A stretch of DNA of 64,000 nucleotides, from positions 1,312,001 through 1,376,000 of the forward strand of contig CAWDFP010000006.1 of assembly GCA_963801605.1 (NCBI GenBank), in the 5' to 3' direction. The translations under genes were made by a program, and so were the position numbers. Shown here one piece after another: positions 1 to 25,937 of the stretch (the first letter of the stretch is position 1; each line of letters begins with the position of its first letter). The notes beneath the pieces are model-generated. The model was given only the letters and a program-made list of their open reading frames with translations, was not told the DNA's origin and did no database searches. The stretch is from an uncultured candidate division Zixibacteria bacterium (GTDB lineage Bacteria > Zixibacteria > MSB-5A5 > UBA10806).

Positions 1-68
1 AACAGACCTCCAAGCCAGGAGAATACTCCCGCCTGCATCGGATTAATTAAACATATTTGATAAATCAT
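1..68 (-). CDS. 5' end of a gene continuing off the left edge (MIYQICLINPMQAGVFSWLGGL...), probably the next gene of the head operon
   Basis: ATG at 68 with GGAGG RBS at 76-80 on the minus strand; frame open to the window edge; not in the ORF track. Confidence 0.55.
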   Translation of the reverse strand, partial: MIYQICLINPMQAGVFSWLGGL

Positions 69-91
69 TTTGATTCCTCCAATTGGTTTTT

Positions 92-159
92 GTGGCGTCA
101 GGACCCCGATCCTGACGCTTTGCGTTTCGCTCATTTCGGTCGGGTTTTTGGACCCACCG
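92..159. repeat. REP-like palindrome doublet
   Basis: GTG-GCGTCAGGA-CCCCGA-TCCTGACGC (92-118) followed by imperfect CGGTCGGGT-TTTTGG-ACCCACCG (137-159); same architecture as 8869-8895. Confidence 0.55.
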
Positions 160-196
160 CATAATTAACTCACAACCCGCAATTTGTAACTCATAA

Positions 197-1306
197 CTAC
201 CTGAATTGCCAGCTTGCCGTATCCGGTACTACCACCTTTGATTTCAGAATCACGCCTGATGGATACTCAAGTGCAAATTGGTATTTTGAATTCGTTTTCG
301 AAAGAACGCTATTAGGGAAAAGATCAATCTGCCAGTAGCCGCTGGAATCGCTGGTTGTGGAACGTTTGAAAGGCGTAATCACTATATTGCCATATTTAAC
401 GGGTTGGTAGTCCGCTGGAATCTCCGCAGAAATAGTTGCACCCGTCACATCCTTTCCGCTGATATCATAAACCCAGCCATAAACGCGGCATAATTCCGGC
501 GATGGCGGGTTGCCGGGATCAAACGGTGTCATGCTTAATTGCCAGACCGAATCGCGATGAACGTCAAGGGTATCATATATCGAAACGTAATTGTTGGCCG
601 TAACAGATATAAAGTACGAGGCTTCGTCAAGCTCGACGATTCTTCTTCCGTTTATATCGGTGGAAAGACCCGGCACTCTGGTGACTGTTTGATCCAGCGA
701 CCTGATCACAATTCGGGCGCCCTGGATAGGAGATATGCCGTTTTGTTTGACCAATAACGTGCAGGCTTCGCTTCCCCCGCCGCTGATGGAAAGCCCGGCG
801 ATATCAGCATCGATACCATCTACACCATTGCCATCGGTAAAATCATATACCATTTTAAGACGATCCAGAGCCCTGATATAGGCAGTATCTGAGACAGCAA
901 GCAAACTCTCGATTGGATGCTCACTGACATAATACCAGCCCTTATGCATGTGACTGACCCGTTTGCCGTTGTAGTTTTTGGTTACCAACGCCCACCAGGT
1001 ATAAGCCCCGAGATGGCCGCTGCTATCCGAGGCTCGAGACCGCCATTCAAACATGGTGTTCGCTGGCCAGGAGTTGCCTATATCGTAAGCGGTAGGAGAT
1101 GTAAGTGTAACCTCCTTAAAGGCGGCGCTTCCGTAACATTGCTTGATATAGGCGGTATCCCAGGCGGCGTAATCAAGTCCTTGAGAATCGGCGAAACAGA
1201 ACTGAATGACGAGAGTATCATTTTTATCTCCAGAACCGTTATCAAAAATCAAACCGGCCCAGGCTGTCGATGTCAGCAACAGGAAGCCTGCCAATATTTT
1301 CTTCAT
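197..1306 (-). CDS. Signal-peptide protein with C-terminal carboxypeptidase-regulatory-like/beta-sandwich repeats, in the head operon
   Basis: MKKILAGFLLLTSTAWA signal peptide; PIQGARIV..TDING and VYGWVYD..VTGATISA..TTSDSSGYWQIDLFPN repeats; 4-bp overlap with the upstream gene. Confidence 0.7.
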   Translation of the reverse strand: MKKILAGFLLLTSTAWAGLIFDNGSGDKNDTLVIQFCFADSQGLDYAAWDTAYIKQCYGSAAFKEVTLTSPTAYDIGNSWPANTMFEWRSRASDSSGHLGAYTWWALVTKNYNGKRVSHMHKGWYYVSEHPIESLLAVSDTAYIRALDRLKMVYDFTDGNGVDGIDADIAGLSISGGGSEACTLLVKQNGISPIQGARIVIRSLDQTVTRVPGLSTDINGRRIVELDEASYFISVTANNYVSIYDTLDVHRDSVWQLSMTPFDPGNPPSPELCRVYGWVYDISGKDVTGATISAEIPADYQPVKYGNIVITPFKRSTTSDSSGYWQIDLFPNSVLSKTNSKYQFALEYPSGVILKSKVVVPDTASWQFR

Positions 1307-1908
1307 CTATCATTCTCCATTCTAATCATTCTCTGGCGACGCACTAACAATGCAGATTCATGGTAGAAAATTTTTATCGCCATGCAATCGATATAAGTAT
1401 CTGTTAGCCACTCATCCCAGGAAGTAACCGCATAAAGGCCGAAAGCAGTTGAGTTCGCGCCCGAAATAGTAATAACGATGGGATCGAAATTGAGAAATCT
1501 CGCGCTGTCTGCTCCGGCAACCCCTGAAAGAAGAAATTCGTGCCAGGCGCCGCGGTTTGAACCGGCAATGAATCCGATCTCAAGAATAGCGTAGTCGCCT
1601 TCGCTTGAACCAGCCCCCGTAAATTTATACCAGAGGCTGTCGATTATCGCGTCTGAGGGCAAACTAAATCCATAGTTGGATGTAAAAAGGCTATCATCTA
1701 CGTTGAGACCCATATAGTAGGCGCTGGAGCCATTGCAGGTTTGTACGTAATTGGGATATTCCCACCCCGATCCGGATGCGACCGAATCGCTTTGAGGATA
1801 ATGCCAACCGGTGCTTGCGCCAAATGCCGTAGATACTAAGGCGGCCATTAATATTATGACCAGAAAGCAGACGCGGGACGGAAAGCTATCGTTTATTTTG
1901 ATTGTCAT
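1303..1908 (-). CDS. Secreted or membrane-anchored beta-rich hypothetical protein in the head operon
   Basis: Hydrophobic VCFLVIILMAALVSTAFG segment near the N-terminus; AAGGAG RBS; starts 8 nt after the repaired stop of the upstream gene. Confidence 0.7.
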   Translation of the reverse strand: MTIKINDSFPSRVCFLVIILMAALVSTAFGASTGWHYPQSDSVASGSGWEYPNYVQTCNGSSAYYMGLNVDDSLFTSNYGFSLPSDAIIDSLWYKFTGAGSSEGDYAILEIGFIAGSNRGAWHEFLLSGVAGADSARFLNFDPIVITISGANSTAFGLYAVTSWDEWLTDTYIDCMAIKIFYHESALLVRRQRMIRMENDR

Positions 1909-1916
1909 TCTCCTTC

Positions 1917-2739
1917 CTATGCTTTCGATGGTGACTTAAAGGAACTTATGGCGATCGCAAAACGCGAAAGGATATTGAACGATTCCTTGCGGTACATATC
2001 AGAGATGGTAGCCCAGGATTGTGCATCATTGCCAGAGGTTTTGACCCGCAGCAGGCGATAGCGATTCCATTGCTTTGATACGGCAGATAATCGATACTGC
2101 CATATAGGTCTCAGCCATCACCAAACCGCGGTCGGACGATTCCCGATACGATTCATCGATAAATGAATTAACCTGTTCGTTGGCTTCGGTTATGGCATTA
2201 TCAATAGTGGAATCATCAAGGCTTCCATATTCGGTGGTATAATCGATCAAGACCCATTGTCCGGCCTCGATTGCTCCGGCGGAACGGCGGCGGATAGTCC
2301 CTGCCTGGTAATCGATATCGTAATCGACTCCTCTTTGGTAGACCCGGTAAAATTGATACCAGATTACAACATCGGAGTTGGCCGGAATAGCGCTTACCGT
2401 TAAACGGCGAATCGTGCCGAGACTGTAATCAATATGGTAATCGATATTTTCCACATAAACGATACCCAGGGAACTATCGCTGGCAACAATTATCGAATCG
2501 GGTATTAATTTGGGATGTCCAAGCTGAACCTCATCTCCCATAGCGAAGCTAATCGTTTCCCTAACCGGGACATTTTGCTCTTTGGCTTTAATCGTTTCGG
2601 ATGATGCCAGAATCATCTGATTCTGAAGTTGCGTAGAATCCGAGACTGAGAACTCGGCGGTTTCATTAGAGACGATTGCCGAACCTATATGATGATCCAG
2701 AATATGCTTTTTTACGATTTCGTTTGTTGTAAATGGCAT
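1917..2739 (-). CDS. Head-tail adaptor (neck)-like protein with inserted beta repeats; one frameshift near 2040
   Basis: Helical MPFTTNEIVKKHI and LDDSTIDNAITEANEQVNSFI..AETYMAVSIIC; the shifted frame continues SWATISDMYRKESFNILSRF to TAG at 1917; position downstream of the capsid gene. Confidence 0.55.
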
Positions 2740-2740
2740 T

Positions 2741-3112
2741 TTAGTTCATCTCCATAATTATGAGGTCAACCAGGGCATCGGTCTCAGACTCGGGCGATTT
2801 CGCCAGTCGAAATGATGTTGTCCCAATCGATCCTACCACAAAGCTTCCGACTTCGTTTTTGGGGACAATGATGATCTCAGCATTATTTAGCGATTCGGGC
2901 AGCGCGTTGCCTCGGTGGTCAACTAAGTCTGCAAATTCCACGACTTGAGCAGCCGCGCCGCAGAGTTCGCGAAAGACGATCAGACGATTTGAAGATGGAC
3001 CATTTTCGGTGGCGATGATTGCGGTATCGAGCGAGCCGGAATCTCCCCAGACAACATAATCGCGTACCAGCCACTTGCGATTGCCGGTGAGATAATCGAA
3101 TGTCACATTCAT
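2741..3112 (-). CDS. Hypothetical protein, head operon
   Basis: 123-aa ORF tightly coupled to both neighbours (ATGA overlap upstream, 1-bp gap downstream). Confidence 0.7.
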   Translation of the reverse strand: MNVTFDYLTGNRKWLVRDYVVWGDSGSLDTAIIATENGPSSNRLIVFRELCGAAAQVVEFADLVDHRGNALPESLNNAEIIIVPKNEVGSFVVGSIGTTSFRLAKSPESETDALVDLIIMEMN

Positions 3113-4548
3113 GCGCCCTCCTCGGCAAGCGCCAGATCATTGAGTTTGGCGGCAGCTAATATCTGGGTGCCAATCGGATTAGTTTCAAAGCCGTTCTCGA
3201 CTCGCGCCCGAACCCAATAAGCGGAGATATTGTTTACCAGACCCAACTGCCAACCGGATGGAGCCGACGCAGCATCCTGCCAGAAATAGATAAGCACATC
3301 AGGGGAATCGAAATTATATCCTCCGGAATTAGGCGTAAATTGCACCCAGGATGAACCATCGAAATATTCCCAGACAACACTGCCTCCGGTACCGGAGGTC
3401 GATAGAATTATAGCGGCACAGAAGAATTTCGATTGCTTTCCCAGATATATACAATCGCCTATCGAATCGAGCAGCCCTTGCGATATCGAATGGAAAATAT
3501 CACCGGCCGTGGTATTGCCTGCCGCTGAGGTTTTATCCTGATACTGCGGCGATCCGGCATTCACATAGAGTATGACCTTATCCAATTGTCCCAGAGCCTG
3601 CGAAAAATTCTCCAGGTTAAAAACCGATCCTGATTTTCTGGCATAGCGCGGAATGAAGTAATTATTTCCCAGATGTTTTCCAAAGAAGATGTGAGGCTTA
3701 TTATCGCGGTAAATTATCTGAGGGGATCTAGCCTCAACGCTTTCCACCTCGATCAAGCCGCTCCAGAGTAGACCATCGAATTCCTTAAGGTAGACTTTGT
3801 CTGATTCTGACGGGGAAAATACAACTCCGAGCCTGCCGTCCTCACTTGGAGCTAAATGAAAGCAATCATCTATATAATCCAGCGAGGCGATAGCCGATTC
3901 ATCCTCCCAAACAGGGTTTGAAAGATCGCATCTTCTTAATATCAGGTTGGATCGTCCCACACAATAGACGGCATATATTTTGGATAGATGCTGACAGATT
4001 CCGACATAACCTTGTTCCACCCAGGACGCCGAAAGTGTTGTTCCCCGATCTGTCGGGCCGGTCCCCCAGCTTTGGCCGTCATCCGTTGATGTTTTAGCCT
4101 GGATCGTGTGCCTCATATTGGTAGAAATCCAATGATGATCGAACAGGCACCACAGCTTACTATCGGCATCTTTCAGAATGACCGGTCGGGAGGAATGATC
4201 AAGATTACAAACGACAAGAGGGCTTCCCTGATTCCAGACTCCCGCGTTCAGAGTCAACTTGATTACCTTCAAGACCTGATTCGTATCGGCATAAACCAGG
4301 TAAATATTCCCCGCGGAATCGATACATGCTGAGAAAGGGGAATCATGAGCGTCGCTGGCAATCTGCTGAGCCGCCGACCATGACTGATAGGGATAATCGG
4401 CAAATTTCAGCGATATGCTATTGGCTGAGTCGGCGTAAAGCGCCACCAACCGGCCCTTGAAAATGCCTGATGGCACTTTCAGAAGCCTCGTTTGGGGCGG
4501 CGACCCGGATGGCCGGGCCGCCGTCGAATTTGAAAGCAGTTTATGCAT
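3109..4548 (-). CDS. Beta-propeller (BNR/Asp-box) protein with C-terminal beta domain, possible head appendage
   Basis: Asp-box STDDGQSW, repeated DxxGxxxxxY blades; directly after the capsid gene, GAGG RBS. Confidence 0.6.
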   Translation of the reverse strand: MHKLLSNSTAARPSGSPPQTRLLKVPSGIFKGRLVALYADSANSISLKFADYPYQSWSAAQQIASDAHDSPFSACIDSAGNIYLVYADTNQVLKVIKLTLNAGVWNQGSPLVVCNLDHSSRPVILKDADSKLWCLFDHHWISTNMRHTIQAKTSTDDGQSWGTGPTDRGTTLSASWVEQGYVGICQHLSKIYAVYCVGRSNLILRRCDLSNPVWEDESAIASLDYIDDCFHLAPSEDGRLGVVFSPSESDKVYLKEFDGLLWSGLIEVESVEARSPQIIYRDNKPHIFFGKHLGNNYFIPRYARKSGSVFNLENFSQALGQLDKVILYVNAGSPQYQDKTSAAGNTTAGDIFHSISQGLLDSIGDCIYLGKQSKFFCAAIILSTSGTGGSVVWEYFDGSSWVQFTPNSGGYNFDSPDVLIYFWQDAASAPSGWQLGLVNNISAYWVRARVENGFETNPIGTQILAAAKLNDLALAEEGA

Positions 4549-4562
4549 TAGCTACCTCAATC

Positions 4563-5660
4563 TCAAGTCCAGACCGAGTCGAGCACCAATGAGGCCTCTT
4601 TGACCACCTTGGCATAAGCGATAGACTCGGATATTACGGCCTCCTCGATCTTTTGCTCGATCACCTTGTCATATTCCACCATCAGAGGCTGGCTGATGAC
4701 TTCCTCGATCGCAAAACGGTTGTCGAGTCCGATCAAATAATCGGTGGGAACCTCATCACATCGAATCAGGGTGGCGCCCAGGGGCGAGGTGATCTCTCCG
4801 TTGGTCTGGAAATTGAAACCGATCATCGGGTCTTTGAATTCGGTGAGAGTCAGGATCGATCTAATCTTGTCCTTATGACAAATAAGAACATTGGGCTGAT
4901 AGGGATAGAATTCATTCCAAAATTTCACCAGGTCGTCATAATCGAGCGTGCCGGTGACATCGGTATTGACGACCGTCGCCGAATTGGTATTGCCATCGCC
5001 ATTAATGATGGTATTCACAATCAAAGCCATCTTGTCGGATTGCAGCCGGTAACCGATGTACCACAAGAGCACCTTGAACTGCGCCATACTGCGGTACCGC
5101 AGCGCTTTGTACGTAACTTTGAGCGTCAGGCCGTAATCGGGCACCACGATCGTATTATTCTGTTCGGTGACATTGACCGATGGAATCTCGGCGCCATCGC
5201 CAACCGGACGAAGCGACATGGAAGCATCGGTAGCGCTGTGATCTATCTTAATAGGAGAATAGCGCGAGGTATTTACCTGGGCGCTGGAGGCTATCAGCCG
5301 TCCCAGTTCCGGCCGCATATTCATGCCTCTGCGAATCTCGCGCATCATAAATTCGGGCATCAAAGCCGGCGCTCCGCGATAGAACATTTCGACCGTGATC
5401 GGATTGCGTCCGCCGGTGCGCAAACCACGTAGAGCCAATTGACGCTCGAACGCATCGAGCGGTGAACTTGCGGGACTGGGATCGTACTCCGATTGCTCCA
5501 GAAGCTCGGTGAGAGTCAGGCCGCGGGCTTGAGCATCCATATAGAGGTCGCGGCTAACATCGATCTTTTTGGCGCGCGTCAAATCAACTGATTTTGCGCC
5601 TTTGGTATCGGATACAAATGCATTTCCTAAATCGGACGATAACAGTTTTTCCATTTCCAT
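4563..5660 (-). CDS. Major capsid protein (HK97-fold type)
   Basis: 365 aa; LTELLE..DP..LDAFERQL..PEF..IRRGM N-terminus, VGDGAEIP, IINGDGN motifs; order protease-decoration-capsid; AAGGAG RBS. Confidence 0.85.
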   Translation of the reverse strand: MEMEKLLSSDLGNAFVSDTKGAKSVDLTRAKKIDVSRDLYMDAQARGLTLTELLEQSEYDPSPASSPLDAFERQLALRGLRTGGRNPITVEMFYRGAPALMPEFMMREIRRGMNMRPELGRLIASSAQVNTSRYSPIKIDHSATDASMSLRPVGDGAEIPSVNVTEQNNTIVVPDYGLTLKVTYKALRYRSMAQFKVLLWYIGYRLQSDKMALIVNTIINGDGNTNSATVVNTDVTGTLDYDDLVKFWNEFYPYQPNVLICHKDKIRSILTLTEFKDPMIGFNFQTNGEITSPLGATLIRCDEVPTDYLIGLDNRFAIEEVISQPLMVEYDKVIEQKIEEAVISESIAYAKVVKEASLVLDSVWT

Positions 5661-5726
5661 TATTTCTCTCCTTTTGATTTCATGAGTGGCAGACCCCTGG
5701 GCCTGCCTGGCGATCTTTCATTAATC

Positions 5727-6149
5727 CTAATTCAAAATCAGCGTTACGTCTGTAGCGCCGTTGACATTGACGACCGTACCGCGAGCCACGTTACCGCCGG
5801 CGGGATCGTACGCGGCCAAAACAGGTGCTTGCCTGACAGCCCCGGAGCCATTAACCACCACTCGATTGCCAACTGCCGGCGTTGTTGCCGCTGATGTTAA
5901 AGTGCAGATACCGCCGACCTGGACTGTAGCGACGCGCTTGCCGTTATCGACATCGGTCAGCGAAAGATCGATGAGCTTTCCGAGCAGAATGCCGCCATTG
6001 GTTCCCAGGCTGATTTCGTAATTGCCCACGATACTTACAGCCTTGCCAATATCAATATCCTTGAGATCATCAAGATTGGCGGTCTGATGAATCTTGAATG
6101 TCGCTGTTTGAAAGCCGATACTCTGCAAATTTTGGTCTCTTACTGCCAT
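5727..6149 (-). CDS. Capsid decoration/cement-like protein
   Basis: 140 aa Gly/Val-rich, DIGKAV...ATVQVGG...VVNGSGAV pattern; immediately upstream of the capsid gene. Confidence 0.65.
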   Translation of the reverse strand: MAVRDQNLQSIGFQTATFKIHQTANLDDLKDIDIGKAVSIVGNYEISLGTNGGILLGKLIDLSLTDVDNGKRVATVQVGGICTLTSAATTPAVGNRVVVNGSGAVRQAPVLAAYDPAGGNVARGTVVNVNGATDVTLILN

Positions 6150-6215
6150 TGTTTCTCCTTTTGATTAAATGCTGCGATTTTGATCTCATATCTTACTGCG
6201 ATTCCCGAATCTGAT

Positions 6216-6440
6216 TTACCTGTAATCCCCCGTATAAATGATTTTGCTATGTTCGATCGATTCCCTTGTCTTCAGCAGACGCATTTGGATAGGATTTAGA
6301 TCCATGTGCATTCCACTCGTTTGAAGCTCGCTTTTGATTATTTCCAGATCGGAGGTTATCCGATCAAAATCAATCTGTTCCGTTTTCAAAGGCGTCTTCA
6401 ATTGATTTCTTGATTCCCTCGATTCGTTTGACAATTTCAT
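6216..6440 (-). CDS. Small helical hypothetical protein (possible scaffold fragment)
   Basis: 74-aa ORF with AAGGAGG upstream, within the head operon. Confidence 0.5.
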   Translation of the reverse strand: MKLSNESRESRNQLKTPLKTEQIDFDRITSDLEIIKSELQTSGMHMDLNPIQMRLLKTRESIEHSKIIYTGDYR

Positions 6441-6483
6441 TTATTTCCAAATTGACCTCCTTGACAGTTGGGTAGACCCAACC

Positions 6484-6798
6484 CTATTTGCCGCTGTTAT
6501 AATTCATTGGTCTTGATGTTTTTGCCTTTGGCTGTTCCAGTATGGTCTCAATAGCCGAAAGCCTGGCAACTACCTCATTTTTGAAATCGAAGAGATCGCC
6601 CTTGGTGGAAAACCGCTCATTGATTGTGGCCTCAAGGCGGGCCAGACGAATATCGAGCTCGGCCACATAATGTTCCTCGGCCTTGGTGGCAAGCCCGACG
6701 CGAAGGCCGGTATAAGCGGCATAGTATCCGGATAACGCCGCAGCTACAGCCATGGCAAAGCTTATCAGGTATTTCACAAGCGGTTCTTTGGGAAACAT
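6484..6798 (-). CDS. Membrane-anchored coiled-coil protein
   Basis: N-terminal hydrophobic YLISFAMAVAAALSGYYAAY followed by heptad-like LDIRLARLE..RLSAIETIL; GGGAG RBS. Confidence 0.65.
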   Translation of the reverse strand: MFPKEPLVKYLISFAMAVAAALSGYYAAYTGLRVGLATKAEEHYVAELDIRLARLEATINERFSTKGDLFDFKNEVVARLSAIETILEQPKAKTSRPMNYNSGK

Positions 6799-6810
6799 AT
6801 TTGAACTCCC

Positions 6811-7524
6811 TTACTCGTCTTTGATAAGAAGGCATTCACGGCCGCCGAATAGCCCAACGGCTGTGCGTCGATCTGATTCAGTCACCGACCTGATTTCAGC
6901 GCAACTCACCCGGATAACTTTCTTAATATCTGCCGAAAGCTTGTCGGTGATATAGGTGCCTCTAACCGATCCTTTGTAGACCAGCGATGTTTCCAATACC
7001 TGCGAAATACCGCCGTAAATGAAATGGGGCGAGTCGGGGCCAGCGCCAGGATCATGTGGACATCGCCGGATATCCTCGCCGCAGATTGAGCATTCGGGAA
7101 CGGTGTAGATAAATGAAATCGAACACTCTTTTAAAATGCCTGAATCGATCTTAAGAAGCAGTTCGTCGCTTCCCTCGGCTCTTGGCCAATAGAAGTAGCT
7201 CTTAAGCCAGAGAATCTCGCCGCCCTCTTCCAGCTCAGCGTGAAAGGTGCGCGCCAACGGAGTTTCGGAACGGTTATGGCCAACGAGCACCGGGGTATCC
7301 GCAATCAGCTCGCAGAGTTTTGACAGGTCCTCCCGACGAAATCGTCCTCCATGCGAATTGATCATATCGTTGACCACATACATGGCTCGGATATTGACAT
7401 TTTCCGCAGTAGCCGGCTTGGGCGGTTTTATGATGCTGTTGATTTTGTCAATCAGGGCAGCCCGGCGATCTTCCGGATCACCAAGTGATAAACTGCCGAT
7501 TAGCGTTTCAGTAATCTTTTCCAA
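6811..7524 (-). CDS. Phage prohead (maturation) protease
   Basis: PVLVGH, KIDSGILKECSISF and CSICG..CPH motifs; likely start is TTG at 7524 after AGGAGG, not 7620. Confidence 0.8.
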   Translation of the reverse strand: MEKITETLIGSLSLGDPEDRRAALIDKINSIIKPPKPATAENVNIRAMYVVNDMINSHGGRFRREDLSKLCELIADTPVLVGHNRSETPLARTFHAELEEGGEILWLKSYFYWPRAEGSDELLLKIDSGILKECSISFIYTVPECSICGEDIRRCPHDPGAGPDSPHFIYGGISQVLETSLVYKGSVRGTYITDKLSADIKKVIRVSCAEIRSVTESDRRTAVGLFGGRECLLIKDE

Positions 7525-7553: not shown

Positions 7554-7603
7554 AAATCAAAATGCACTTTGAACGCGTTTTAGAGTCGCTATAAGAGCGT
7601 GGA
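7554..7603 (-). promoter_or_regulatory. Conserved upstream element of the head operon (copy 1)
   Basis: TCCACGCTCTTA-N10-AAAACGCGTTCAAAGTGCATTTTGATTT; both blocks identical to 22337-22385. Confidence 0.8.
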
Positions 7604-7887: not shown

Positions 7888-7897
7888 ATTAATTACA

Positions 7898-13097: not shown

Positions 13098-13376
13098 TTA
13101 ATAACGGGAACGGCCCATATTGCTGCGGTTCTCGGTGCGTGGACGAGCCTCGCTGACATTAAGAGAGCGGCCATTAAGCTCTTTGCCGTTCAAACCGGCA
13201 ATAGCGGCTTCGCCTTCGGCCTTTGAGGACATTTCCACAAATCCGAAACCCTTGGAATCGCCACTGAACTTATCCTTGATAATATTGACTGATACGATCT
13301 GGCCGTGGGCTTCAAATGCCGTGCGAAGATCGCCTTCCGCTGTGTCGCGGGATAGATTGCCGATGTATAATTTCAT
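13098..13376 (-). CDS. RRM RNA-binding protein
   Basis: RNP2 LYIGNL and RNP1 KGFGFVEM. Confidence 0.95.
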   Translation of the reverse strand: MKLYIGNLSRDTAEGDLRTAFEAHGQIVSVNIIKDKFSGDSKGFGFVEMSSKAEGEAAIAGLNGKELNGRSLNVSEARPRTENRSNMGRSRY

Positions 13377-13772: not shown

Positions 13773-13982
13773 TTAATTTAGTCTGAGCACATTCTGGGCC
13801 TGAAGTCCCTTGGGGCCTTCAGCTAATTCAAATTGTACTTCCTCTCCCTCTGCGAGCGATTTAAAACCATCACCCTTGATCGATGTGTAGTGGACGAAGA
13901 TGTCTTGTTCGCTCTCATTTTGTCGAATGAACCCGTATCCCTTTTTACTGTTAAACCACTTAACTTTACCCACATTAGCCAA
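13773..13982 (-). CDS. cspA: Cold-shock protein
   Basis: GKVKWFN, KGYGFI, DIFVHY; TTG start after AGGAGG. Confidence 0.93.
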   Translation of the reverse strand: MANVGKVKWFNSKKGYGFIRQNESEQDIFVHYTSIKGDGFKSLAEGEEVQFELAEGPKGLQAQNVLRLN

Positions 13983-14256: not shown

Positions 14257-14751
14257 GTGATGGCCAGAATTGATTATGTTGAACCTGAAGTCTTACAGTC
14301 ACTTATCTCGCTTGAAACGGCACCGGTTGATCCCCGGTTGAAAGCCGAAGTCGAAAAGGCTTTGGCACAGCTTCCAGAGCATCTGCAGGAACTTGTAATT
14401 GCCCGAATTTATCAGGGCAAGACCCTTAATCAGATTATGCGACTTAACAATCTTCCGCGGGAATTGGTCATTTCGGAACTCAAGGAAGCCATGCGCCAAC
14501 TTCGATTGCTCCTGGCCGATTTTGTTCGCAATCGTTGGAATATCGAAATAGGCCCGATTTGCAGGATCTGTGTTCATCCACAACGCGAAAATATCAATCG
14601 AATGCTCAGAAATAAACCGGATTCCCAATCCTGGGGATTATTTGGAAAACATTTGCGGCGCGAAATTGGAGAGAATATCGGTCCCCCGAGGGTTTTTATT
14701 ACTCATCTGAATCATATTGAAAGGAGTAGAAATGACTATGCGGGCAGATAA
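14257..14751 (+). CDS. Sigma70 region-4-like HTH protein fused to a CxxC...HxxH domain
   Basis: EVEKALAQLPEHLQELVIARIYQGKTLNQI..LKEAMRQLR; CRICVHPQR...HLNH; GGAGG RBS. Confidence 0.7.
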   Translation: MMARIDYVEPEVLQSLISLETAPVDPRLKAEVEKALAQLPEHLQELVIARIYQGKTLNQIMRLNNLPRELVISELKEAMRQLRLLLADFVRNRWNIEIGPICRICVHPQRENINRMLRNKPDSQSWGLFGKHLRREIGENIGPPRVFITHLNHIERSRNDYAGR

Positions 14752-14962
14752 GCATCACGTTCAAATCCGCCTATCGATGCAGACCAAAAAGGAACTCCGC
14801 GACGCCTCCAAACACTTGGAATTGACGGAATCGGATGTTATGCGAAGCGCCCTGTTTTTCGGATTGCCGATCGTGGTCGCTATGAACGAATTGCAGGGGG
14901 AATTGATAAAACGTCTGGTTAAGAAACTGAAGGGTGAGGCGCGAATTCACCGATCCGGCTGA
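14732..14962 (+). CDS. Ribbon-helix-helix-like small DNA-binding protein
   Basis: VQIRLSMQTKKELRDASKHLELTESDVMRSAL; AAGGAG before ATG 14732. Confidence 0.65.
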   Translation: MTMRADKHHVQIRLSMQTKKELRDASKHLELTESDVMRSALFFGLPIVVAMNELQGELIKRLVKKLKGEARIHRSG

Positions 14963-15519
14963 CACGCGAAATTATTGCGCCGGCCCGGTTCATTTCGTCT
15001 ATTGCCGCTGCCGAATCGCCCGCTTTGACCTCAACTCCCATGATAGCATCGGCAAGTAAAACGACCTTGAATCCGTTGGCAAGAGCGTCTAGTGTGGTGG
15101 CCTTGACGCAGTAATCTGTTGCCAGGCCGCCGATGAAAAGACGCTCCACGCCGGCGTCCCTCAACATTTTGGCCAATTTCGTTCGCTGGAAACCGGAATA
15201 AGCTTCTTTGTCCGGATCGCTGCCTTTTTTGATCTGAGTTGCTTTCCCGATTTTCAAGCCGGGATGCAACTGCGATCCTCTGGTTCCGGCTACGCAGTGC
15301 GACGGCCAAATGCCCCCCTGCTCTTTGAACGATATGTGGTTTGCGGGATGCCAATCCTGCGTGGCGTAGATATGTTTAAAATATGGCTACGAGAGCATTT
15401 AGGCTCTCTATTATCGAATCCCCTCCGGGAACCGGCAGGGCCCCGCCGGGACAAAAATCGTTTTGGACATCGACAATGACCAGCGCGTCCTTTTCCTTAT
15501 CGATTTTAATCTCATTCAT
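14919..15519 (-). CDS. pncA: Nicotinamidase/pyrazinamidase, one frameshift near 15390
   Basis: ALVIVDVQNDFCPGGAL, QDWHP, WPSHCV, KG..EAYSGF, GLATDYCV. Confidence 0.88.
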
Positions 15520-18798: not shown

Positions 18799-19359
18799 TT
18801 ATCTTTTTATCTTTTGAGTGGCTTGGCCGCTTACCAACGCATTTAACGTAATTCGTTCCTTTTTCACGGTAATGTCATGTTCGAGTGCAGTGACTCGAGA
18901 CCGAAGATTATTTACCTCGCGCCTGACCTCACGCTCGTGGATGGCTTTTTTAATTGCCAGGTCGATCTCATCGAGCTTAAAGGGTTTGAGAATATAATCG
19001 GAAGCTCCCATGCGAATCGCCCTAACGGATGAATCGAGAGTCGGAAATCCGGTCATCAGTATTGTTACTATATCAGGATTAATTTGGGTGATTTTCTCGA
19101 TCGTTTCGAGACCATCCATGCCCCGCATTTTCAAATCCACCAGCACAATGTCGCAGGGTGATTTTACCAACAACGAAATAGCATCCTCGCCGCTGCCCGC
19201 AGTTTGTACCTTATAATTTTCCCGTTTGAAATATTCATTAAGAAAATCAAGAACAAGATCGTCGTCATCGACAACCATCAGCGATGGTTTTTCAACATTT
19301 TCCACTCGCTGTTGATGTTCTATGGTATTTTTGGTTTTATAGGATGTATCTTGTGCCAT
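18799..19359 (-). CDS. Response regulator (receiver + coiled coil, no clear output domain)
   Basis: VVDDD, DLKM..MDG, MTG, GASDYILKPF. Confidence 0.9.
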   Translation of the reverse strand: MAQDTSYKTKNTIEHQQRVENVEKPSLMVVDDDDLVLDFLNEYFKRENYKVQTAGSGEDAISLLVKSPCDIVLVDLKMRGMDGLETIEKITQINPDIVTILMTGFPTLDSSVRAIRMGASDYILKPFKLDEIDLAIKKAIHEREVRREVNNLRSRVTALEHDITVKKERITLNALVSGQATQKIKR

Positions 19360-19742
19360 TTATCCCTCTTAAAAAAATGGTTTGACTGCCAGTCTGTCGC
19401 CTCTATTAAAGGCATCCATTAACATTATCGGAATATTTGACAAAAGATTTATGGGCTGAATTGAAAGTGACAGCCATCCTCGATCAAGGGGTAAATCGAT
19501 TATAAAGGTGTTTCCACGCTTAAAGTGACCACAAATAAACTTATATATGCCAGTTATGAGCATTTAATTAGACTTAGCTTTTTATGCATATCAAATAAAA
19601 TGAGTCTTTTAGAATGAAATTTGTTAAAAAAATAGGGCTGCGAATGTATCAATTCAACAGCCCTTATACTCAAAATACAATTATATTTTGTTCAGCGCCG
19701 CCAAGTATACTTGTAATTCCTGCTCCGACAGGCAAAAGTCAT

Positions 19743-21416
19743 TTATTTTATAACCATCATTTTTTTGGTTTCCGAAAAAGTGCCTGTCTCAATTCGATAG
19801 AAGTAGGTGCCTGATGGCTGATTGCCGGAGTTCCAGGTAATTTTGTGATAGCCCGCTTCCTGGTAGTTATCAACCAATACCTCTATGCGCCTGCCGGTAA
19901 TGTCATAAACTTCAATGCTAACGTGAGATTGCTCCGGAAGGCCATACGCAATAGTCGTTGTCCCATTAAAAGGATTTGGATAAGATTGTCCAAGAACATA
20001 ATCGGATGGCACAGTCTCGTACTCTTCATCCGTCTCATCTTCAAATTTCGACATAAAAACATTTCCCGCGCGGATTCTAAAATTGCGATTTGATCTGGCG
20101 TTGGCCATATTCCCGAAAGTATCGCGCACTGAAACCCTAACACGGCAAGTTCTCGACGATACATTTGGGACTATCCAATTATATCTATGAGGATCCCCCG
20201 ATGTCCAATCCGCGATCATCGTCCAAATAGTCCCTGCATCGATGCTGTATTCCAGTTTATAGGCCGCTACCCCAACGTTATCATTATCGGTCCATGTGAT
20301 GCTATAGGTATTAAATCCTCTTAAATTTTGGCCACCGTTGGGATTGATTAAGGTTAACGTAGGGATAGTATTATCCCTGATGGTGAAATTAGCATTTGAA
20401 AGATCGCTGCCGATAGCCCCAAAGGCGTCTCTGCATGAAATTCTTATCTTCGCGCTTATTGTGGGATTGGGGGGTACGGTCCAGGCAAAAGTATGAGGAT
20501 CCCCTGTTGTCCAATCGCGAATTATGAGCCAGGTGGCGCCTGAATCAGCCGAATATTCCAGTTTGTGAGAGGCAATCCCGCCGACTACATCGCTATCGGT
20601 CCAGATAATATTATGCGCAGAACCAATATCCCAAATTTCGCTTCCGTTAGGCGCGCCAACTGTAACCAGAGGATTATCGTTTTGCGAACTGGGAACAACA
20701 AAGGAATCCGGTCTGGACCACAGGCTTGAATCGCTTAGATCCCTGGCCATCACCCGACAATGCCAATAGTATTTTACGGCGCGATTTAAGCCCGTGTATG
20801 TTACCATTGCCAGTGAATCTATCAGGCTGTCTGCTGATATTGATGGGTTTGAAAAATTAGATGAGAAATCTAATGCGAATTGGTATTTGATTGGTAACGG
20901 TGCCCCCACCGTATCTGCCTTAAGCGTGGCCGACGCCTGCACTGAATCCATAACGGCCGGCCTTGGATTCGGAGTCATTAGTCCCCCCGCAAATTTCCTG
21001 ATTACATTTGATATTACCGAGACATTACCGGCCCGGTCATAAGTCTTAATGGCGAGATAGTAAGGCGCCCCGCGATTAAGCCCGGAGAATGTAAAGCTCT
21101 GAATTGAGCCCGCAGGAAGAGGAAGCGGTGGATTGGGGATACTTGGAGCCAATCCCCAATTTAATTCCGTAATAATAGTACTTGAGCATTTGATGATATA
21201 ATGATCGGCGGTCCCGTTATTCCCATCATCGCCTGGCGCGGTCCAATGAATAGTCATTTCTCCGGGGACAGTCTCGATTGACGCCGGCGAAAGAGTTATA
21301 TCATCTTTAAAAGCGGGTTGTAGATGTACGGATTGTACAGCATATAATGTTGAGAATTGCAGCCCCCATAATACAATAAAAACCATAAATATGGTTTTTC
21401 GCCTCGATAACGTCAT
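19743..21416 (-). CDS. Secreted Fn3/Ig-repeat protein with YPNPFN-type C-terminal sorting domain
   Basis: Signal peptide, WTAPGDDG Fn3, two PNG..I.W...YS.D.G..W repeats, QSYPNPFN...KKMMVIK. Confidence 0.85.
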   Translation of the reverse strand: MTLSRRKTIFMVFIVLWGLQFSTLYAVQSVHLQPAFKDDITLSPASIETVPGEMTIHWTAPGDDGNNGTADHYIIKCSSTIITELNWGLAPSIPNPPLPLPAGSIQSFTFSGLNRGAPYYLAIKTYDRAGNVSVISNVIRKFAGGLMTPNPRPAVMDSVQASATLKADTVGAPLPIKYQFALDFSSNFSNPSISADSLIDSLAMVTYTGLNRAVKYYWHCRVMARDLSDSSLWSRPDSFVVPSSQNDNPLVTVGAPNGSEIWDIGSAHNIIWTDSDVVGGIASHKLEYSADSGATWLIIRDWTTGDPHTFAWTVPPNPTISAKIRISCRDAFGAIGSDLSNANFTIRDNTIPTLTLINPNGGQNLRGFNTYSITWTDNDNVGVAAYKLEYSIDAGTIWTMIADWTSGDPHRYNWIVPNVSSRTCRVRVSVRDTFGNMANARSNRNFRIRAGNVFMSKFEDETDEEYETVPSDYVLGQSYPNPFNGTTTIAYGLPEQSHVSIEVYDITGRRIEVLVDNYQEAGYHKITWNSGNQPSGTYFYRIETGTFSETKKMMVIK

Positions 21417-22336
21417 TCATCCTCCTTGAACTAAACTTGTTGACGTCTTTACAGCCCGCTTTTCACCGTCAAACGGACTTTTTTATTTTGGCGATTATTT
21501 TATTAATTAGATCGTAGATATTTCTCTGGGAAATCGATGCGATCTAATTCAATTTAGTTTATTTCGTCGAAGTTGAATCCCTCATTCAACAATTGACGAA
21601 TTTGCTCAATAGGCTTCCTCCATATTCATCCATTTCGTAATTATCGAGCTCACAATCAAAATTAATGCCATGAATTTAGCTACGGCACAATAAACGACCG
21701 CCTTGTATCTGCATTGAACTCCTTATATTTAAGGACTTCAATACACCTTGGCTTTGGGCCAGCCCGCCTTTTGTCTTAAATTATTATTGTTACGAACTAG
21801 AGGATACTCAACACGAACTATTTGTACTATTTAAGAAGTCGCAGAAGAACCCTTAAAGCATCCCACCAATTACAACTTAACCGGCTCAGTCATATATCTC
21901 ACGGCCGGTCGCACGCCCCTTCTGAGAGCCTGCCTAACGCATATAGTGCATTAATCATCAGCTCGTCAAGAGTTATTTGTAACATTCCTAAAATATTGTT
22001 ACTAACACTTGTGTTACATAATTATCTATACTTATTTGGGATACACGGGATATTTTGAAGATTATTTTTATGCCGTAATCCTCTTAAAAAATTAAAAAAC
22101 TATTATATTTCCCGTTATAAAATGATTTGATCAGAATTTTCAATCGAAAGTCTTCGAACTTGGGCAATAAGTGTATCTAAAACCTTAGATCGATATTCAA
22201 ATATATAGGTGTCGACCGATTTATATGATTTTAGCCCTATTAAATTGAATGAAGATGCATCCGCCCTGAGTGAATAATCCAAGGTAGACTTCTAATTACA
22301 CACTCCTCTCTATAAACAGATATATCTAAAATTTTC

Positions 22337-22385
22337 TCCACGCTCTTAAATGTCCTCAAAACGCGTTCAAAGTGCATTTTGATTT
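22337..22385 (+). promoter_or_regulatory. Conserved upstream element of the packaging operon (copy 2)
   Basis: TCCACGCTCTTA-N9-AAAACGCGTTCAAAGTGCATTTTGATTT; both blocks identical to copy 1. Confidence 0.8.
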
Positions 22386-22429
22386 CCCAAGCCTATAAAA
22401 GTGAAGAGATGATGAAAGGAGAATCGTTA

Positions 22430-23710
22430 ATGTTTGGATTTAAGAAAATACCTAAGGTACCACAGGGTAATCTAGCTGCCAATGCCCGAATGATCAAAGC
22501 GCATCAAGCGCGTGAAAAGGCGGGATCGCCGTTAAAATCCGGATCTGCAACCATTTCTTTTCCCGCAGAATATGGTTTTGCGGAAAGGGTAACGCTTTAT
22601 CGATTTCTAAGAGAGAATATCCCAATTATAAGCGGCGCCATCTGGATTTGGTCCCGCCTCTGTGCCAGTCCAATGGAATTCCAGTTAAGCGGAGGCCCCA
22701 GCAAGCATAATATCGCTTTGCTCAAATCGCATTTAGACAAACTTAATACTCTGCTTTCGCCCAACGCTTACTATAAATCCGGCGGCCTGGACAGGCTTTG
22801 CGATCTCTTTTTCAGTTCCCTTTTTATCGATGGCGCCTTTGCTGGAAATATCGAGATCGATCAATCCGGAAAATTGGCCGGTTTTACTCCCTGCGATATT
22901 AGAAATTTATCTTTCGAATCTGATAATGGTCAAAACGGTTATCCCGGATGGAAAATATATCGCCAAATCGAGGGCAATCGGGAGCTTCTCGATCCCGCTA
23001 CTTTCATCTACATCCCTCTTGATGATGATGCTTGCGATCCTCGTGGCAAAAGCATATTGCAGTCGGTCGGTTTTGTCAGCCGGTTGGAACAAAAACTTCT
23101 CGACGATATGCAAAAATCGCAGGAAAAAGCCGGGTATAACAGGTTACATGTTCTTATTAAAAAACCCGAAAGGCGTTTAGGCGAAACCGAGCAAAATTAT
23201 ATCGATCGCGCTAACGGCTATTTCGATGATACCGTCACGCTTTTTTCCGGAATCAAACCATCAGATTCGGCAGTCACCTGGGATGATATCGAAATTAAGA
23301 CAATCGGGCCATCGTCGGGCGCGGGAAGCGCCAGCAACTCCTGGTATCTCTCGCATCGGGCGCTGGTCGAGGATATCTGCGCCGGTGTGCATCTCGATCC
23401 ATTCATGTTAGGCTATTCTTACTCATCGACCCAAACCTGGGCCAGGTTCAAATTCGAGCTTGTTCTACGTGAGATTATATCAGTCCAGAAGCAGGCGGCC
23501 AAATTTTTCGAATGGCTGGTCAACACTCATCTGGCCCTTGAGGGTTCAAGTTCGGCAGTATCTGTCAAATTCGATAACGATCGGGTTAATAGTGTTCTTG
23601 AAAAATACCGTGCCGAGCGTGAAGCCAGCGATCGGGTTATCGAGTTATTCAAGGCTGGCCTTCTTACCAGGGAAGAGGCTCGCGAAAAAATCAATGAAAG
23701 GATCGATTGA
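22430..23710 (+). CDS. Phage portal protein
   Basis: LYRFLRENIPIISGAI, SLFIDGAF, DPRGKSILQ, ICAGVHLDPFMLG, GLLTREEARE; ATG 22430 after AAGGAG; upstream of terminase. Confidence 0.8.
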   Translation: MFGFKKIPKVPQGNLAANARMIKAHQAREKAGSPLKSGSATISFPAEYGFAERVTLYRFLRENIPIISGAIWIWSRLCASPMEFQLSGGPSKHNIALLKSHLDKLNTLLSPNAYYKSGGLDRLCDLFFSSLFIDGAFAGNIEIDQSGKLAGFTPCDIRNLSFESDNGQNGYPGWKIYRQIEGNRELLDPATFIYIPLDDDACDPRGKSILQSVGFVSRLEQKLLDDMQKSQEKAGYNRLHVLIKKPERRLGETEQNYIDRANGYFDDTVTLFSGIKPSDSAVTWDDIEIKTIGPSSGAGSASNSWYLSHRALVEDICAGVHLDPFMLGYSYSSTQTWARFKFELVLREIISVQKQAAKFFEWLVNTHLALEGSSSAVSVKFDNDRVNSVLEKYRAEREASDRVIELFKAGLLTREEAREKINERID

Positions 23711-23712
23711 CC

Positions 23713-24048
23713 ATGCAGCCATCCTCATGCGCCATCTGCGATTCGCCATTGCGCTCCGAAATCGAAAAACTTGATTCCCAATGGAACGACATTCATACTG
23801 TTCAGTGGGCCCGTAAACAAGGACTAAATATCAGTCGTTTTTCGCTTGTAAAACATCGAACCAACCATTTGCAATCAGCGGCCCCCGGAAATAATGGCAA
23901 CGGCGGGAAAACACTTGATAATAAACCCGCAGAGATTGTCGTGCTTAAACCGTTAAAGTCTGCTATTAAGGAAATGGTACAACCATCGGAAAATAATATT
24001 CCGAAAACAAAACGTAAAAATAATGGCCAACGGCATTCCCGAAAATAG
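23713..24048 (+). CDS. CxxC...HxxxH Zn/HTH-like protein, candidate terminase small subunit N-terminal part
   Basis: CAICDSPLRSEIE...ISRFSLVKHRTNH; lies between portal and TerL. Confidence 0.55.
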   Translation: MQPSSCAICDSPLRSEIEKLDSQWNDIHTVQWARKQGLNISRFSLVKHRTNHLQSAAPGNNGNGGKTLDNKPAEIVVLKPLKSAIKEMVQPSENNIPKTKRKNNGQRHSRK

Positions 24049-24364
24049 ATCGGTAAAGCCCGTTGATACAATATCCTCTGTGGAAAACTCCCAACCCGAA
24101 GCAAATTCGAACACAACTAAATCGGAACCGTTGATAGAAAAAGCAGTCCCCGCGAAATCGCATACTACTATTACCGATCAATTGCTTCTCGACACAGTGC
24201 GAGATCAGGTTTACCAAAAACTCGTTAGTGGCGAAATCAATCTCGGATTGAGTGATGGTTTCAAGGCAATCGAGATCAAGCACAAGATTGCCGAGGGATC
24301 GCAAAATGAGAAGCTGCTTCTGGAGATCTTAAGCGAGATCCGTTCTCAGGAGCTGGCAACCTGA
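24023..24364 (+). CDS. Helical protein, candidate terminase small subunit C-terminal part (may be fused to the upstream ORF)
   Basis: Low-complexity linker then DQLLLDTVRDQVYQKL..DGFKAIEIK helices; no RBS, overlap follows an A-run. Confidence 0.5.
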   Translation: MANGIPENRSVKPVDTISSVENSQPEANSNTTKSEPLIEKAVPAKSHTTITDQLLLDTVRDQVYQKLVSGEINLGLSDGFKAIEIKHKIAEGSQNEKLLLEILSEIRSQELAT

Positions 24365-24366
24365 TA

Positions 24367-24504
24367 GCCATTGCGAGGTCTCCGGTCTAAGAGACTGAAG
24401 ACAGTGGCAATCGCCTGGCACAACGCTGTATTGCGAATAAGCGCATTATATCCCGGCCAGGCGATTGCCACTCCCCAACATTTCATGTCGGGGCTCGCAA
24501 TGGC
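24367..24504. repeat. 138-bp palindromic (MITE/RPE-like) element
   Basis: Outer GCCATTGCGAG/CTCGCAATGGC (11 bp) and inner AGTGGCAATCGCCTGGC/GCCAGGCGATTGCCACT (17 bp) perfect inverted repeats. Confidence 0.8.
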
Positions 24505-24530
24505 CGCGGGCAGCCCGTTGGCATACCCTG

Positions 24531-25937
24531 ATGACAAATACGAGTACAAAACATCGTAACTGGCGACGAGCGATAAAGGACCCGGTCTACTTTGCGCGCG
24601 CTTTTTTGGGATTGGAGCCTCATCCGGGCCAGGCGCGCTGGCTTTGCGCAAGCACTGGCAGCGAAAACGCGCTCGTTACCGGAAATCGTTGGGGCAAATC
24701 GGAGATTCAGGCCGTTAAGCTGTTACATCGAGCGCTCTTTCAAATCCGGCCTACGGAGTGTGATGTCAAAGACTGTTATCGCTGCGTCAATGTGTCGATT
24801 ACTCAGGATCAGGCCGGGATTATTTTCGGCAAGGCCACGTCACTTATCAGCCGGTCGCGCCCGCTCCAGGCAATGGTGAAAGAGATTAAACAAACACCAT
24901 TTCCGCATATTGAACTGAAGAATGGTTCCGAGATATGGGCGCGTTCCTCGCATAACAGGGGTGAATATCTGCTTGGCCATGACTTCGATTATATCAATTT
25001 CGATGAGGCTGCCTATGAACCGTTCGGGGAATGGGTTGTTGATGGTGTTATCAAGATGCGCTTGGCGGATCGCCAGGGGACTCTCGATTTCTCATCGACT
25101 CCAAATGGGCTCAACTGGTTTTACAGGCGCTGCCAGAAGATTGAAAAGGATAAGCGCGGCCATATTCAGCACGGTTCGACATTTGAAAATCCACACCTGT
25201 CTCAGAAATATTTAGCCGATCTTAGGGAATCGCTATCGGAATCCCGGGCCGCTCAGCATCTTTATGGCAAGTTCACTTCGTTTGAGGGACGATTATTTCC
25301 TGAGGAGATTATACAGCGCTGTCTGATAACAAATGCCGGGTGGCATGCTTGTCCCGATCTTAATCGGGATAAGCATGGTAGATCGGGTTCCGAGTCCCGA
25401 ACTTATCAGGACGAGAAACCCGAAAGCCCGTCCAGTGGATTCTTCATTCATGGTTGGGATCTGGCGCGCAAGGTTACATATACTGTTGGAATATCACTTG
25501 ATACTACAAAGCGTCCATTCCGAGTTGTAAACATCGTCCGTATGCAGCGCGAATGGCCGGTGACTATTAAATCTATCAAGGATATTCATGCCAGGTATGG
25601 CGGCATTACGATTATCGATTCCACCGGCTTAGGGGATGTGGTTCTCTCGGAACTTGGGGATATCGGGGCAATTGGTTTTAATTTCGGAGGCGGCAATCGC
25701 GATCTGCTTTTGGCCAACTTTGAACGGGCCATTTACGCCGGTGAGGTGCTCTGGCCCGATATTGAAATTCCCGATGATAACGGTGGTACCTGGAGCTTAA
25801 CCGACGAGATTCGGGCGATGGATAAATCATATGAGAATGTTGGTGATGGCGTTTGCGCGCTGGCCTTGGCGCTCTGGCAGGTCAGACAGCGATCATCCGA
25901 CCTGCCGTTTCTGAAATCAGCCGTTGGAAGTTTTTAA
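24531..25937 (+). CDS. terL: Terminase large subunit
   Basis: PHPGQ, Walker A GNRWGKS, Walker B FDEAA, C-motif STP, nuclease GWDLAR, IDSTGLG, DGVCALALA; start uncertain. Confidence 0.92.
   Translation: MTNTSTKHRNWRRAIKDPVYFARAFLGLEPHPGQARWLCASTGSENALVTGNRWGKSEIQAVKLLHRALFQIRPTECDVKDCYRCVNVSITQDQAGIIFGKATSLISRSRPLQAMVKEIKQTPFPHIELKNGSEIWARSSHNRGEYLLGHDFDYINFDEAAYEPFGEWVVDGVIKMRLADRQGTLDFSSTPNGLNWFYRRCQKIEKDKRGHIQHGSTFENPHLSQKYLADLRESLSESRAAQHLYGKFTSFEGRLFPEEIIQRCLITNAGWHACPDLNRDKHGRSGSESRTYQDEKPESPSSGFFIHGWDLARKVTYTVGISLDTTKRPFRVVNIVRMQREWPVTIKSIKDIHARYGGITIIDSTGLGDVVLSELGDIGAIGFNFGGGNRDLLLANFERAIYAGEVLWPDIEIPDDNGGTWSLTDEIRAMDKSYENVGDGVCALALALWQVRQRSSDLPFLKSAVGSF
25344..25423. repeat. Tandem palindromes inside terL
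   Basis: CATGCTTGTCCCGAT-CTTA-ATCGGGATAAGCATG, then GTAGA-TCGGGTT...AACCCGA with nested GTCCCGA/TCAGGAC. Confidence 0.7.

Follow-up and report, generated by a model that had tools for sequence, protein, structure and literature searches.

What are two outward-facing sets of phage head and DNA-packaging genes doing in the genome of a Zixibacterium, with ordinary host genes between them? The stretch of DNA concerned, 64,000 nt long and called the window here (G000:C6:1312001-1376000, where G000 is the genome of the window and further G and L labels are other genomes and loci compared), holds a minus-strand head operon and a plus-strand packaging operon with about 15 kb of host genes in between, an arrangement that a preliminary description had reported and that scans of open reading frames and families reproduced. 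The same description proposed a domesticated gene transfer agent (GTA)-like system. In our analysis domestication and co-regulation were supported, the separation of the operons did not hold as evidence, and packaging and delivery are predicted from the genes, with neither a tail gene nor a conserved endolysin found. The locus is probably an ancient phage head-and-packaging module, likely giving a tail-less or very short-tailed GTA-like particle that carries host DNA between cells.

Distribution, inheritance and selection

The capsid gene was matched in 224 of the 239 phylum genomes that are at least 85% complete, once in 214 of the 239, as befits the single copy proposed, and twice in 10. It was likewise matched in 57 of 61 relatives, and TerL was present in 201 of the 209 genomes that are at least 90% complete (the set also used for the candidate regulator below). 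Capsid identity follows taxonomy (about 82% in the family, about 70% in the order and about 57-69% in the class), and the closest capsid relatives, 78-84% identical, are mostly Zixibacteria where a lineage is named, along with some assemblies labelled Ignavibacteria. Gene set and order are conserved in the 41 genomes with DNA retrieved, to which the counts out of 41 refer. In these, TerL and capsid genes are contiguous in 28, forming a cluster of about 13-17 kb, broken by a contig end in 1, on the same contig 11-101 kb apart in 6 (including G000) and on different contigs in 4, and TerL is missing in 2. Because the operons are contiguous in 28/41 genomes, the split appears to be secondary, a lineage-specific rearrangement; it was therefore dropped as a defining trait, and its use as evidence for a GTA in the preliminary description fell with it. 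Conserved host flanks, also looked for, are not kept across families. Losses of the system are real but rare: G027 (95% complete) has no capsid, TerL, portal, candidate regulator or propeller gene (the last two are described below), and G146 and G077 have no capsid, TerL or propeller gene.

Inheritance was followed in trees of 31 genomes from 15 families, in which a concatenate of eight genes was compared with RpoB. The eight-gene tree had 26 of 28 splits in common with RpoB, recovered 18 of 19 strong RpoB splits and showed 0 strong-versus-strong conflicts, in line with the host-congruent trees expected of a domesticated system. Patristic distances of the concatenate and RpoB were correlated with r = 0.88, a value reached in 0 of 999 permutations (in which kin are not independent), capsid distances were 1.15 times those of RpoB, and the RpoB topology was not rejected by the capsid alignment (approximately unbiased (AU) test, p 0.66). 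The ratio of non-synonymous to synonymous substitution rates (dN/dS), calculated by the Nei-Gojobori method for 7 close pairs, was well below 1, as had been anticipated (0.03-0.08 for capsid, 0.06-0.11 for TerL, 0.04-0.25 for portal with one pair saturated, 0.03-0.15 for decoration); among the accessory genes almost all values lay under 0.3. Single copy, host-congruent trees, low dN/dS and the fact that no integrase was seen nearby together strongly support domestication.

A search of 1.84 billion representatives gave one full-length protein for the Zixibacteria capsid group, with the next full-length relative at 41%, and Zixibacteria-type capsids were monophyletic (Shimodaira-Hasegawa-like support 1.0) against 61 outside capsids. 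L080 and L081, from bins titled Thermoplasmata and Ca. Deferrimicrobium, fall inside the Zixibacteria capsid clade; these are likely misbinned or mislabelled contigs, or may reflect transfer. GenBank 'phage' capsid matches were 23-33% identical, and in IMG/VR the Zixibacteria type was 1 among the 80 matches listed of 158 (L240, with the same cluster). Capsid database names, where given, read 'hypothetical protein'.

These results bear on the possibility that an ordinary or decayed prophage or satellite was rearranged in this genome, or that the split is a misassembly. Phage-family genes in a phage-like order would fit a prophage, as would the adaptor-like and TerS-like genes, both of which are frameshifted in the G000 assembly. 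However, RpoB is also frameshifted there (C6, near 1498125), which makes sequencing error the likelier cause of the breaks; since RpoB is broken too, the frameshifts of the window are probably sequencing errors and not pseudogenes. Other housekeeping genes on C6 are frameshifted as well (selB-like region, window 14919-15354), a pattern typical of long-read assembly errors. As for the split, G001, of the same genus, has the identical junction of response-regulator and portal genes, and 5 other genomes have the operons 11-101 kb apart on one contig. One DNA read run held 5% of words, in short pieces only, and was too thin for a check of expression or assembly.

A prophage is further opposed by the near-universal single copy, the host-congruent trees, the strong purifying selection and the lack of mobility genes. 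Integration and replication genes were absent from the conserved cluster (56 loci in 41 genomes, flanks read by eye); this survey and the search of five genomes for PF10145 agree with the preliminary description, which had seen no integrase, replication or tape-measure gene. Left of the window the head operon closes with one holin-like gene, followed by genes for CCA-adding enzyme, carbamate kinase and AsnRS (by eye), and no integrase, replication or tail gene was seen in this left flank or at 28-64 kb, both read by eye without a family scan. The traits of a temperate prophage or satellite are thus lacking: there is no adjoining integrase or replication module, distribution is not patchy, spread is not horizontal and copy number is not variable. 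Prophage or artefact is a highly improbable explanation and has been largely refuted.

A shared upstream motif and its further loci

An identical 28-bp promoter-like motif stands ahead of the head operon (7554..7581, minus strand) and of the packaging operon (22358..22385, plus strand). These are its only two occurrences in the window, and 100 shuffles gave 0 matches. This common motif, which also heads further loci, supports the co-regulation that the preliminary description had proposed. With a matrix derived from five of the family's other genomes, nine G000 sites ranked among the top 11, namely the two operons, an M15 peptidase gene and six copies of an intergenic element of about 300 nt. 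G013 and G067 have the two operon sites only, and G062 and G068 gave no pattern match. Across the phylum, the portal and protease upstream regions matched each other within a genome better than in every cross-genome pairing in 15/33 genomes, and their similarity exceeded all shuffles in 17/33, where some high scores may stem from repeats.

The candidate activator of these loci lies inside the spacer (14257..14751, plus strand) and has a sigma70 region 4 (PF04545) and a CxxC-H zinc finger, by which domain type we take it to parallel GafA. Its gene was found in 204/209 genomes, and 3 of the 5 genomes without it also have no TerL, a joint absence of which two of three cases could be accounted for by linkage in fragmented assemblies. 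In several genomes of three families it lies 3-15 kb from TerL. That the motif acts as a promoter, that the loci are transcribed from it and that the sigma-region-4 protein is their activator are suggested by this arrangement. Genes for an RNA recognition motif (RRM) RNA-binding protein (13098-13376, minus strand) and a cold-shock protein (csp, about 13773-13982, minus strand, identified by eye) adjoin it. By family scan the spacer further holds a major facilitator superfamily transporter, a desaturase, a pncA-like gene, a tetratricopeptide repeat-thioredoxin protein, a response regulator, secreted proteins and a DNA methylase, the latter an N6/N4 DNA methyltransferase (PF01555, 12038-12985, plus strand) whose restriction partner was not seen.

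The endolysin-like M15 peptidase (G000:C6:363565-364077, plus strand, L185; PF13539, E 5e-17) lies about 950 kb from the locus. In both G000 and G001 its gene follows a copy of the motif, and longer homologues occur in G053 and G060, where the motif was not recognised. As a universal endolysin of the phylum it was rejected, being present in 4/61 genomes, and no conserved endolysin was found (M15 was tested; other lytic enzymes were not searched phylum-wide).

The six G000 copies of the intergenic element, dispersed and each behind the motif, are at C7:368567-368833(+), C7:87189-87452(-), C6:1567616-1567880(-), C2:93-356(-), C6:1401189-1401451(-) and C11:44657-44917(-); G001 has two more, and G006 and G009 have one apiece. 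The element is 294-343 nt long, has folding z values of -2.6 to -4.7, and contains a perfect palindrome of 12 bp, which is conserved, before ending in a hairpin led by GTAG. Both-sided changes were seen in 16 of 65 pairs among 8 related sequences, from which the structure was itself derived. The shorter relatives in G006 and G009 came to light with a covariance model from which the promoter had been left out, and each lies directly 3' of the same type of motif. No Rfam family matched at gathering score in 9 loci of relatives, and the six G000 copies gave a chance-level SmY match only. The GTAG-led hairpin presumably resembles that of a repetitive extragenic palindromic (REP) repeat, and a mobile repeat having captured a promoter is a fair alternative origin of the element. 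Extra motif copies also precede apparently non-coding, hairpin-rich stretches in G008, G026 and G070; those at L213 and L217 (G026 and G070) have a common 16-bp perfect palindrome, and the RNA model was negative in G026. Under stricter filters the structured RNA was found in 4/41 genomes, all of one family, and was rejected as a phylum-wide component.

Such dispersed motif-led elements with their covariation would suit a particle that serves as a shell for specific cargo marked by RNA or template (pac-like sites). This is one form of a broader alternative, which we hold to be possible but unlikely, namely a domesticated particle with a non-transfer job, otherwise a PBSX-like weapon, a decoy or an adhesive with incidental DNA. 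Against RNA cargo, the RNA is confined to those four genomes of one family, whereas the protein core is phylum-wide.

Genes of the two operons

The packaging operon runs from portal through a TerS-like gene to TerL, all on the plus strand. The portal protein (22430..23710) matched phrog_3753 (E 6e-29), and the large terminase TerL (24465..25937) matched phrog_2 (E 4.5e-27) and PF03237. The ATPase and nuclease motifs of TerL are intact, as first described: GNRWGKS, DE, STP.G, GWDLaRK, DsTG.G and the last Asp are kept across 31 genomes, and at least 95% of key positions are conserved. The putative small terminase (23707..24364), one gene that is split by a frameshift here, has a zinc-finger/helix-turn-helix-like N-terminus and a helical domain and matched only an unnamed PHROG (phrog_1007). 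A putative TerS gene lies between portal and TerL in families f1-f4, and in most other families the head operon encodes a short helical protein instead; the zinc-finger-like N-terminus was matched in 5/39 TerS-like proteins and in the split G000 gene. An encapsulin-like compartment was considered and rejected, as portal and intact terminase are co-conserved.

The head operon, all on the minus strand, begins with a prohead protease-like protein (6811..7524), which matched the unnamed phrog_16951 and phrog_37797 only and whose conserved GH and cS motifs presumably fit the prohead protease family. In 3 genomes this protein is fused to a domain with the ligase motif KYDG, and further long forms lack KYDG; the G053 fusion matched PF01068 (ATP-dependent ligase-like, E 6e-29) and PF13298 (LigD phosphoesterase-like). 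Protease-ligase-phosphoesterase fusions are found at L066:6086-8419, L068:5664-8024 and L062:6404-8608, with eroded versions in other families, and the fusion could serve repair of packaged or delivered DNA ends. Next come a small coiled-coil protein with a transmembrane helix at its N-terminus (6484..6798; in 34/41 stretches, with a hydrophobic N-terminus in 30/34) and a short helical scaffold-like remnant (6216..6475), likely frameshifted here, which has longer counterparts in other families; a longer counterpart matched the coiled-coil gene upstream of the capsid gene in IMG/VR relatives (E 4e-7). The head decoration or virion structural protein (5727..6149) matched phrog_4588 (E 4e-8), and the major capsid protein (4563..5660), HK97-type by family, matched phrog_3922 (E 4e-67) and PF25209.

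Beyond the capsid gene lies one for a 479-aa protein (3109..4548), present in 41/41 stretches and predicted as a beta-propeller with an all-beta C-terminal domain (AlphaFold2 pLDDT 94.6), which may be sialidase/lectin-like or a short-tail nozzle. In Foldseek searches the pseudaminidase 2w38 ranked 1 and the LME-1 portal-tail chain 9efk_M ranked 2 (TM-score 0.3-0.5), and a P22 gp10-like protein ranked 13 in BFVD; sialidases, lectins and the podophage tail chain match about equally, and a P22/T7-type nozzle or hub below the adaptor would be one possible role. A PDB sequence search returned sialidase-like matches only, and in the Atlas the propeller fell in Zixibacteria-dominated clusters only. 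The following 123-aa beta-sandwich protein (2741..3112; AlphaFold2 pLDDT 88), weakly like an H-type lectin or tail-fibre tip, gave middling VIA Z values of 5.3-5.6 to discoidin I, the receptor-binding domain of the Pam1 tailspike and AP22 gp53, and no match at E<=0.001 in a Foldseek viral search.

The putative head-to-neck adaptor with inserted immunoglobulin (Ig)-like domains (1920..2739), frameshifted near 2041-2048 in the G000 assembly, is present in 40/41 stretches. Its Ig portion matched phrog_807/18315, a PDB sequence search with its alignment was empty, and no relation showed when the profile of the family was compared with that of a gene at the neck position in a phage; an adaptor role is suggested by position and helical ends. 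For neither 'adaptor' nor 'TerS', both labels of the preliminary description, was a named family match found.

The last three genes encode a variable-slot protein and putative adhesin (1303..1908), a protein with a C-terminal carboxypeptidase-regulatory-like (Ig-type) domain (197..1306; PF13620, weak) and a holin-like small membrane protein (1..134 for its 5' part, the 149-aa reading frame running 315 bp beyond the window). The variable-slot protein has a signal-peptide-like N-terminus, a hypervariable body and often a C-terminal basic RRR patch, and the slot holds differing proteins of about 190-1200 aa from genome to genome. The protein at 197..1306, with a signal-peptide-like N-terminus, is found in 35/41 stretches, with a hydrophobic N-terminus in 29/35 and a conserved C-terminal domain; these signal-peptide-like calls rest on hydropathy and on no signal-peptide predictor. 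The holin-like gene was found in 18/41 stretches, with an N-terminal hydrophobic stretch in 17/18, and Pfam and PHROG scans of its protein gave no match. PHROG scans gave no named family for the exported, variable-slot or holin-like proteins.

Delivery, precedents and meaning

In the transfer particle that we favour, a phylum-specific activator, for which the sigma-region-4/zinc-finger protein is the candidate, would jointly induce all motif-bearing loci. Proheads would then form and be filled with host DNA by the terminase through a headful mechanism, one with hardly any choice of sequence wherever the putative TerS has no zinc finger, after which the portal would be sealed by the Ig-bearing adaptor. 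On recipient cells, the propeller and the lectin-like proteins would attach to surface glycans. The small membrane proteins may aid particle exit, as may the recruited M15 peptidase in some lineages.

Several observations weigh against such a particle. Tape measure (PF10145), baseplate J (PF04865) and tail tube (PF06199) were found in 0 of 5 genomes, of which four are closed or almost closed, while the controls were positive (Caulobacter for PF10145 and PF06199), which leaves the route of DNA delivery unexplained, and the M15 peptidase is limited to the few genomes named above (4/61). Signal-peptide-like N-termini on co-operonic proteins (29/35) fit poorly with a particle assembled in the cytoplasm, and the labels TerS, holin and adaptor are putative. 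Parts of the system are also lost independently of each other: the closed genome G049 (99% complete) has no TerL yet has kept portal and head genes (G049:C1:1548000-1580000), and G115 and G105 retain portal and TerL without capsid (G115:C4:149000-168999 and G105:C12:68000-87999). The concatenate topology was rejected by the RpoB data (AU p 0.02, with 2000 replicates, which are few), one strong conflict with RpoB was seen in the tree of the head subset and one in that of the packaging subset, and within-genome similarity of portal and protease upstream regions did not exceed every shuffle in 16/33 genomes.

Some of this would suit a particle with a non-transfer job, for which the tail tube and tape measure not found in the five genomes, the many putative glycan-binding modules with the hypervariable slot, and the head retained without TerL in G049 all speak. 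PBSX of Bacillus subtilis, as described in PMC12946183, is a precedent, being a domesticated phage module that packages host DNA but does not inject it, and acts as a tailocin. Unlike this tailocin, the Zixibacteria cluster has no tail or baseplate genes that we could find in five genomes, and the presence of TerL in 201/209 genomes, with intact motifs and dN/dS near 0.1, opposes a job without transfer.

A non-lytic, membrane-docked machine for DNA export or delivery, in which filled heads would dock via the adaptor on the small membrane and exported proteins, DNA or particles would be released and the cell would survive, is quite unlikely. It would account for the two membrane and two signal-peptide-like proteins conserved within the operon and for the failure to find a conserved endolysin or a tail, and the same design recurs in a sister system described below (Ig-adaptor, signal-peptide-like proteins and no tail gene in short contigs); the motif-led peptidase of G000 and G001, being endolysin-like, points to lysis instead.

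The favoured transfer particle can be set beside GTAs as viriforms, for which PMC9662315 gives six criteria. The proteins here are Caudoviricete-derived (capsid, portal, TerL and decoration matches), the genes are endogenised in several loci (host flanks, no mobility genes, 6/41 split on one contig, peptidase about 950 kb away), and inheritance is vertical with co-diversification (26/28 RpoB splits; residual discordance, AU p 0.02). Random host DNA as cargo, a head below the size of its own gene set, and delivery would be the other three traits; on genomic grounds the cluster appears to work like a GTA, yet it cannot be filed as one. RcGTA, CcGTA, BaGTA and VSH-1/BhGTA are likewise Caudoviricete-derived, endogenised, multi-locus, vertical and co-diversifying with the host (PMC9662315). 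The capsid family phrog_3922 suggests a separate origin for the Zixibacteria cluster. Unlike the model GTAs, it occurs in about 94-96% of the genomes of a whole phylum and has signal-peptide-like proteins, a protease-ligase fusion and a motif-led RNA. RcGTA-like agents (Rhodogtaviriformidae) have a siphovirus-type tail with tape measure and tail tube, and the corresponding PF10145 and PF06199 were found in 0/5 Zixibacteria genomes.

FpGTA of Faecalibacterium is a tail-less, two-operon, GTA-like precedent of about 40 nm and 8.4-8.9 kb according to PMC12946183. By that description it resembles the Zixibacteria cluster in its two operons, its core of TerL, portal and capsid, lysis genes off the core, no visible tail and a possible TerS without an obvious DNA-binding domain. 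FpGTA is, however, of genus level, Gram-positive and experimentally shown, and the likeness is one of description; unlike in FpGTA, no second operon of baseplate or fibre genes was found under the motif in Zixibacteria.

Alike in gene families are two Clostridia modules (L093:138-6002 and L223:16112-22212), which have the same capsid, portal and protease families (phrog_3922/30703/16951) with a capsid identity of 31-33%. Like the Zixibacteria cluster they are compact and sit amid housekeeping genes where no replication module was seen, but they match other TerL subfamilies, have three small downstream genes and lack propeller, Ig-adaptor and signal-peptide genes; from their sequence they are candidate GTAs. 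L223, whose database entry calls it a phage and gives human faecal samples as the source, reads like a host chromosome; the one GenBank 'phage' examined is a stretch of clostridial-type chromosome in which a compact packaging module is flanked by rnf and by ribosomal genes. A sister cluster (L246, L320-L323) has capsid, Ig-inserted adaptor-like, portal, protease and signal-peptide-like proteins as in Zixibacteria, and a 121-aa protein, but differs in gene order and TerL and has 33% capsid identity, in contigs below 9 kb. Its named homologues come from Ca. Hatepunaea, Ca. Electryonea and LCP-89, which we take to be Electryoneota. Since the Ig-bearing adaptor-like gene is shared with this Electryoneota cluster, domestication may be older than the phylum Zixibacteria. 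A bolder reading, which we consider doubtful, is that Zixibacteria and probably Electryoneota carry a tail-less, phylum-core viriform of a new class, whose HK97-type heads, filled by the intact terminase, would dock on membrane and exported proteins made along with them and so be released without lysis or deliver their DNA directly, and in which co-regulated structured RNAs with self-complementary palindromes, or the DNA encoding them, would direct packaging or be the cargo themselves.

Few GTA lineages are known, and GTA genes are readily mistaken for prophages; the Zixibacteria cluster is already in IMG/VR as a virus (L240), and in the open-access literature, with subscription journals not covered, no paper linking Zixibacteria to a GTA was found. 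That no tail was found, and that signal-peptide-like partners and a co-regulated RNA were, suggests a route of delivery or packaging unlike that of the model GTAs, and the reading predicts that Zixibacteria host DNA of fixed length would be found in particle fractions of sediment and groundwater. Across a widespread phylum defined by metagenome-assembled genomes, a phage head-and-packaging module behaves as a housekeeping gene, and its prevalence of about 95% and a capsid rate near that of RpoB would together imply one ancient domestication and a lasting benefit.

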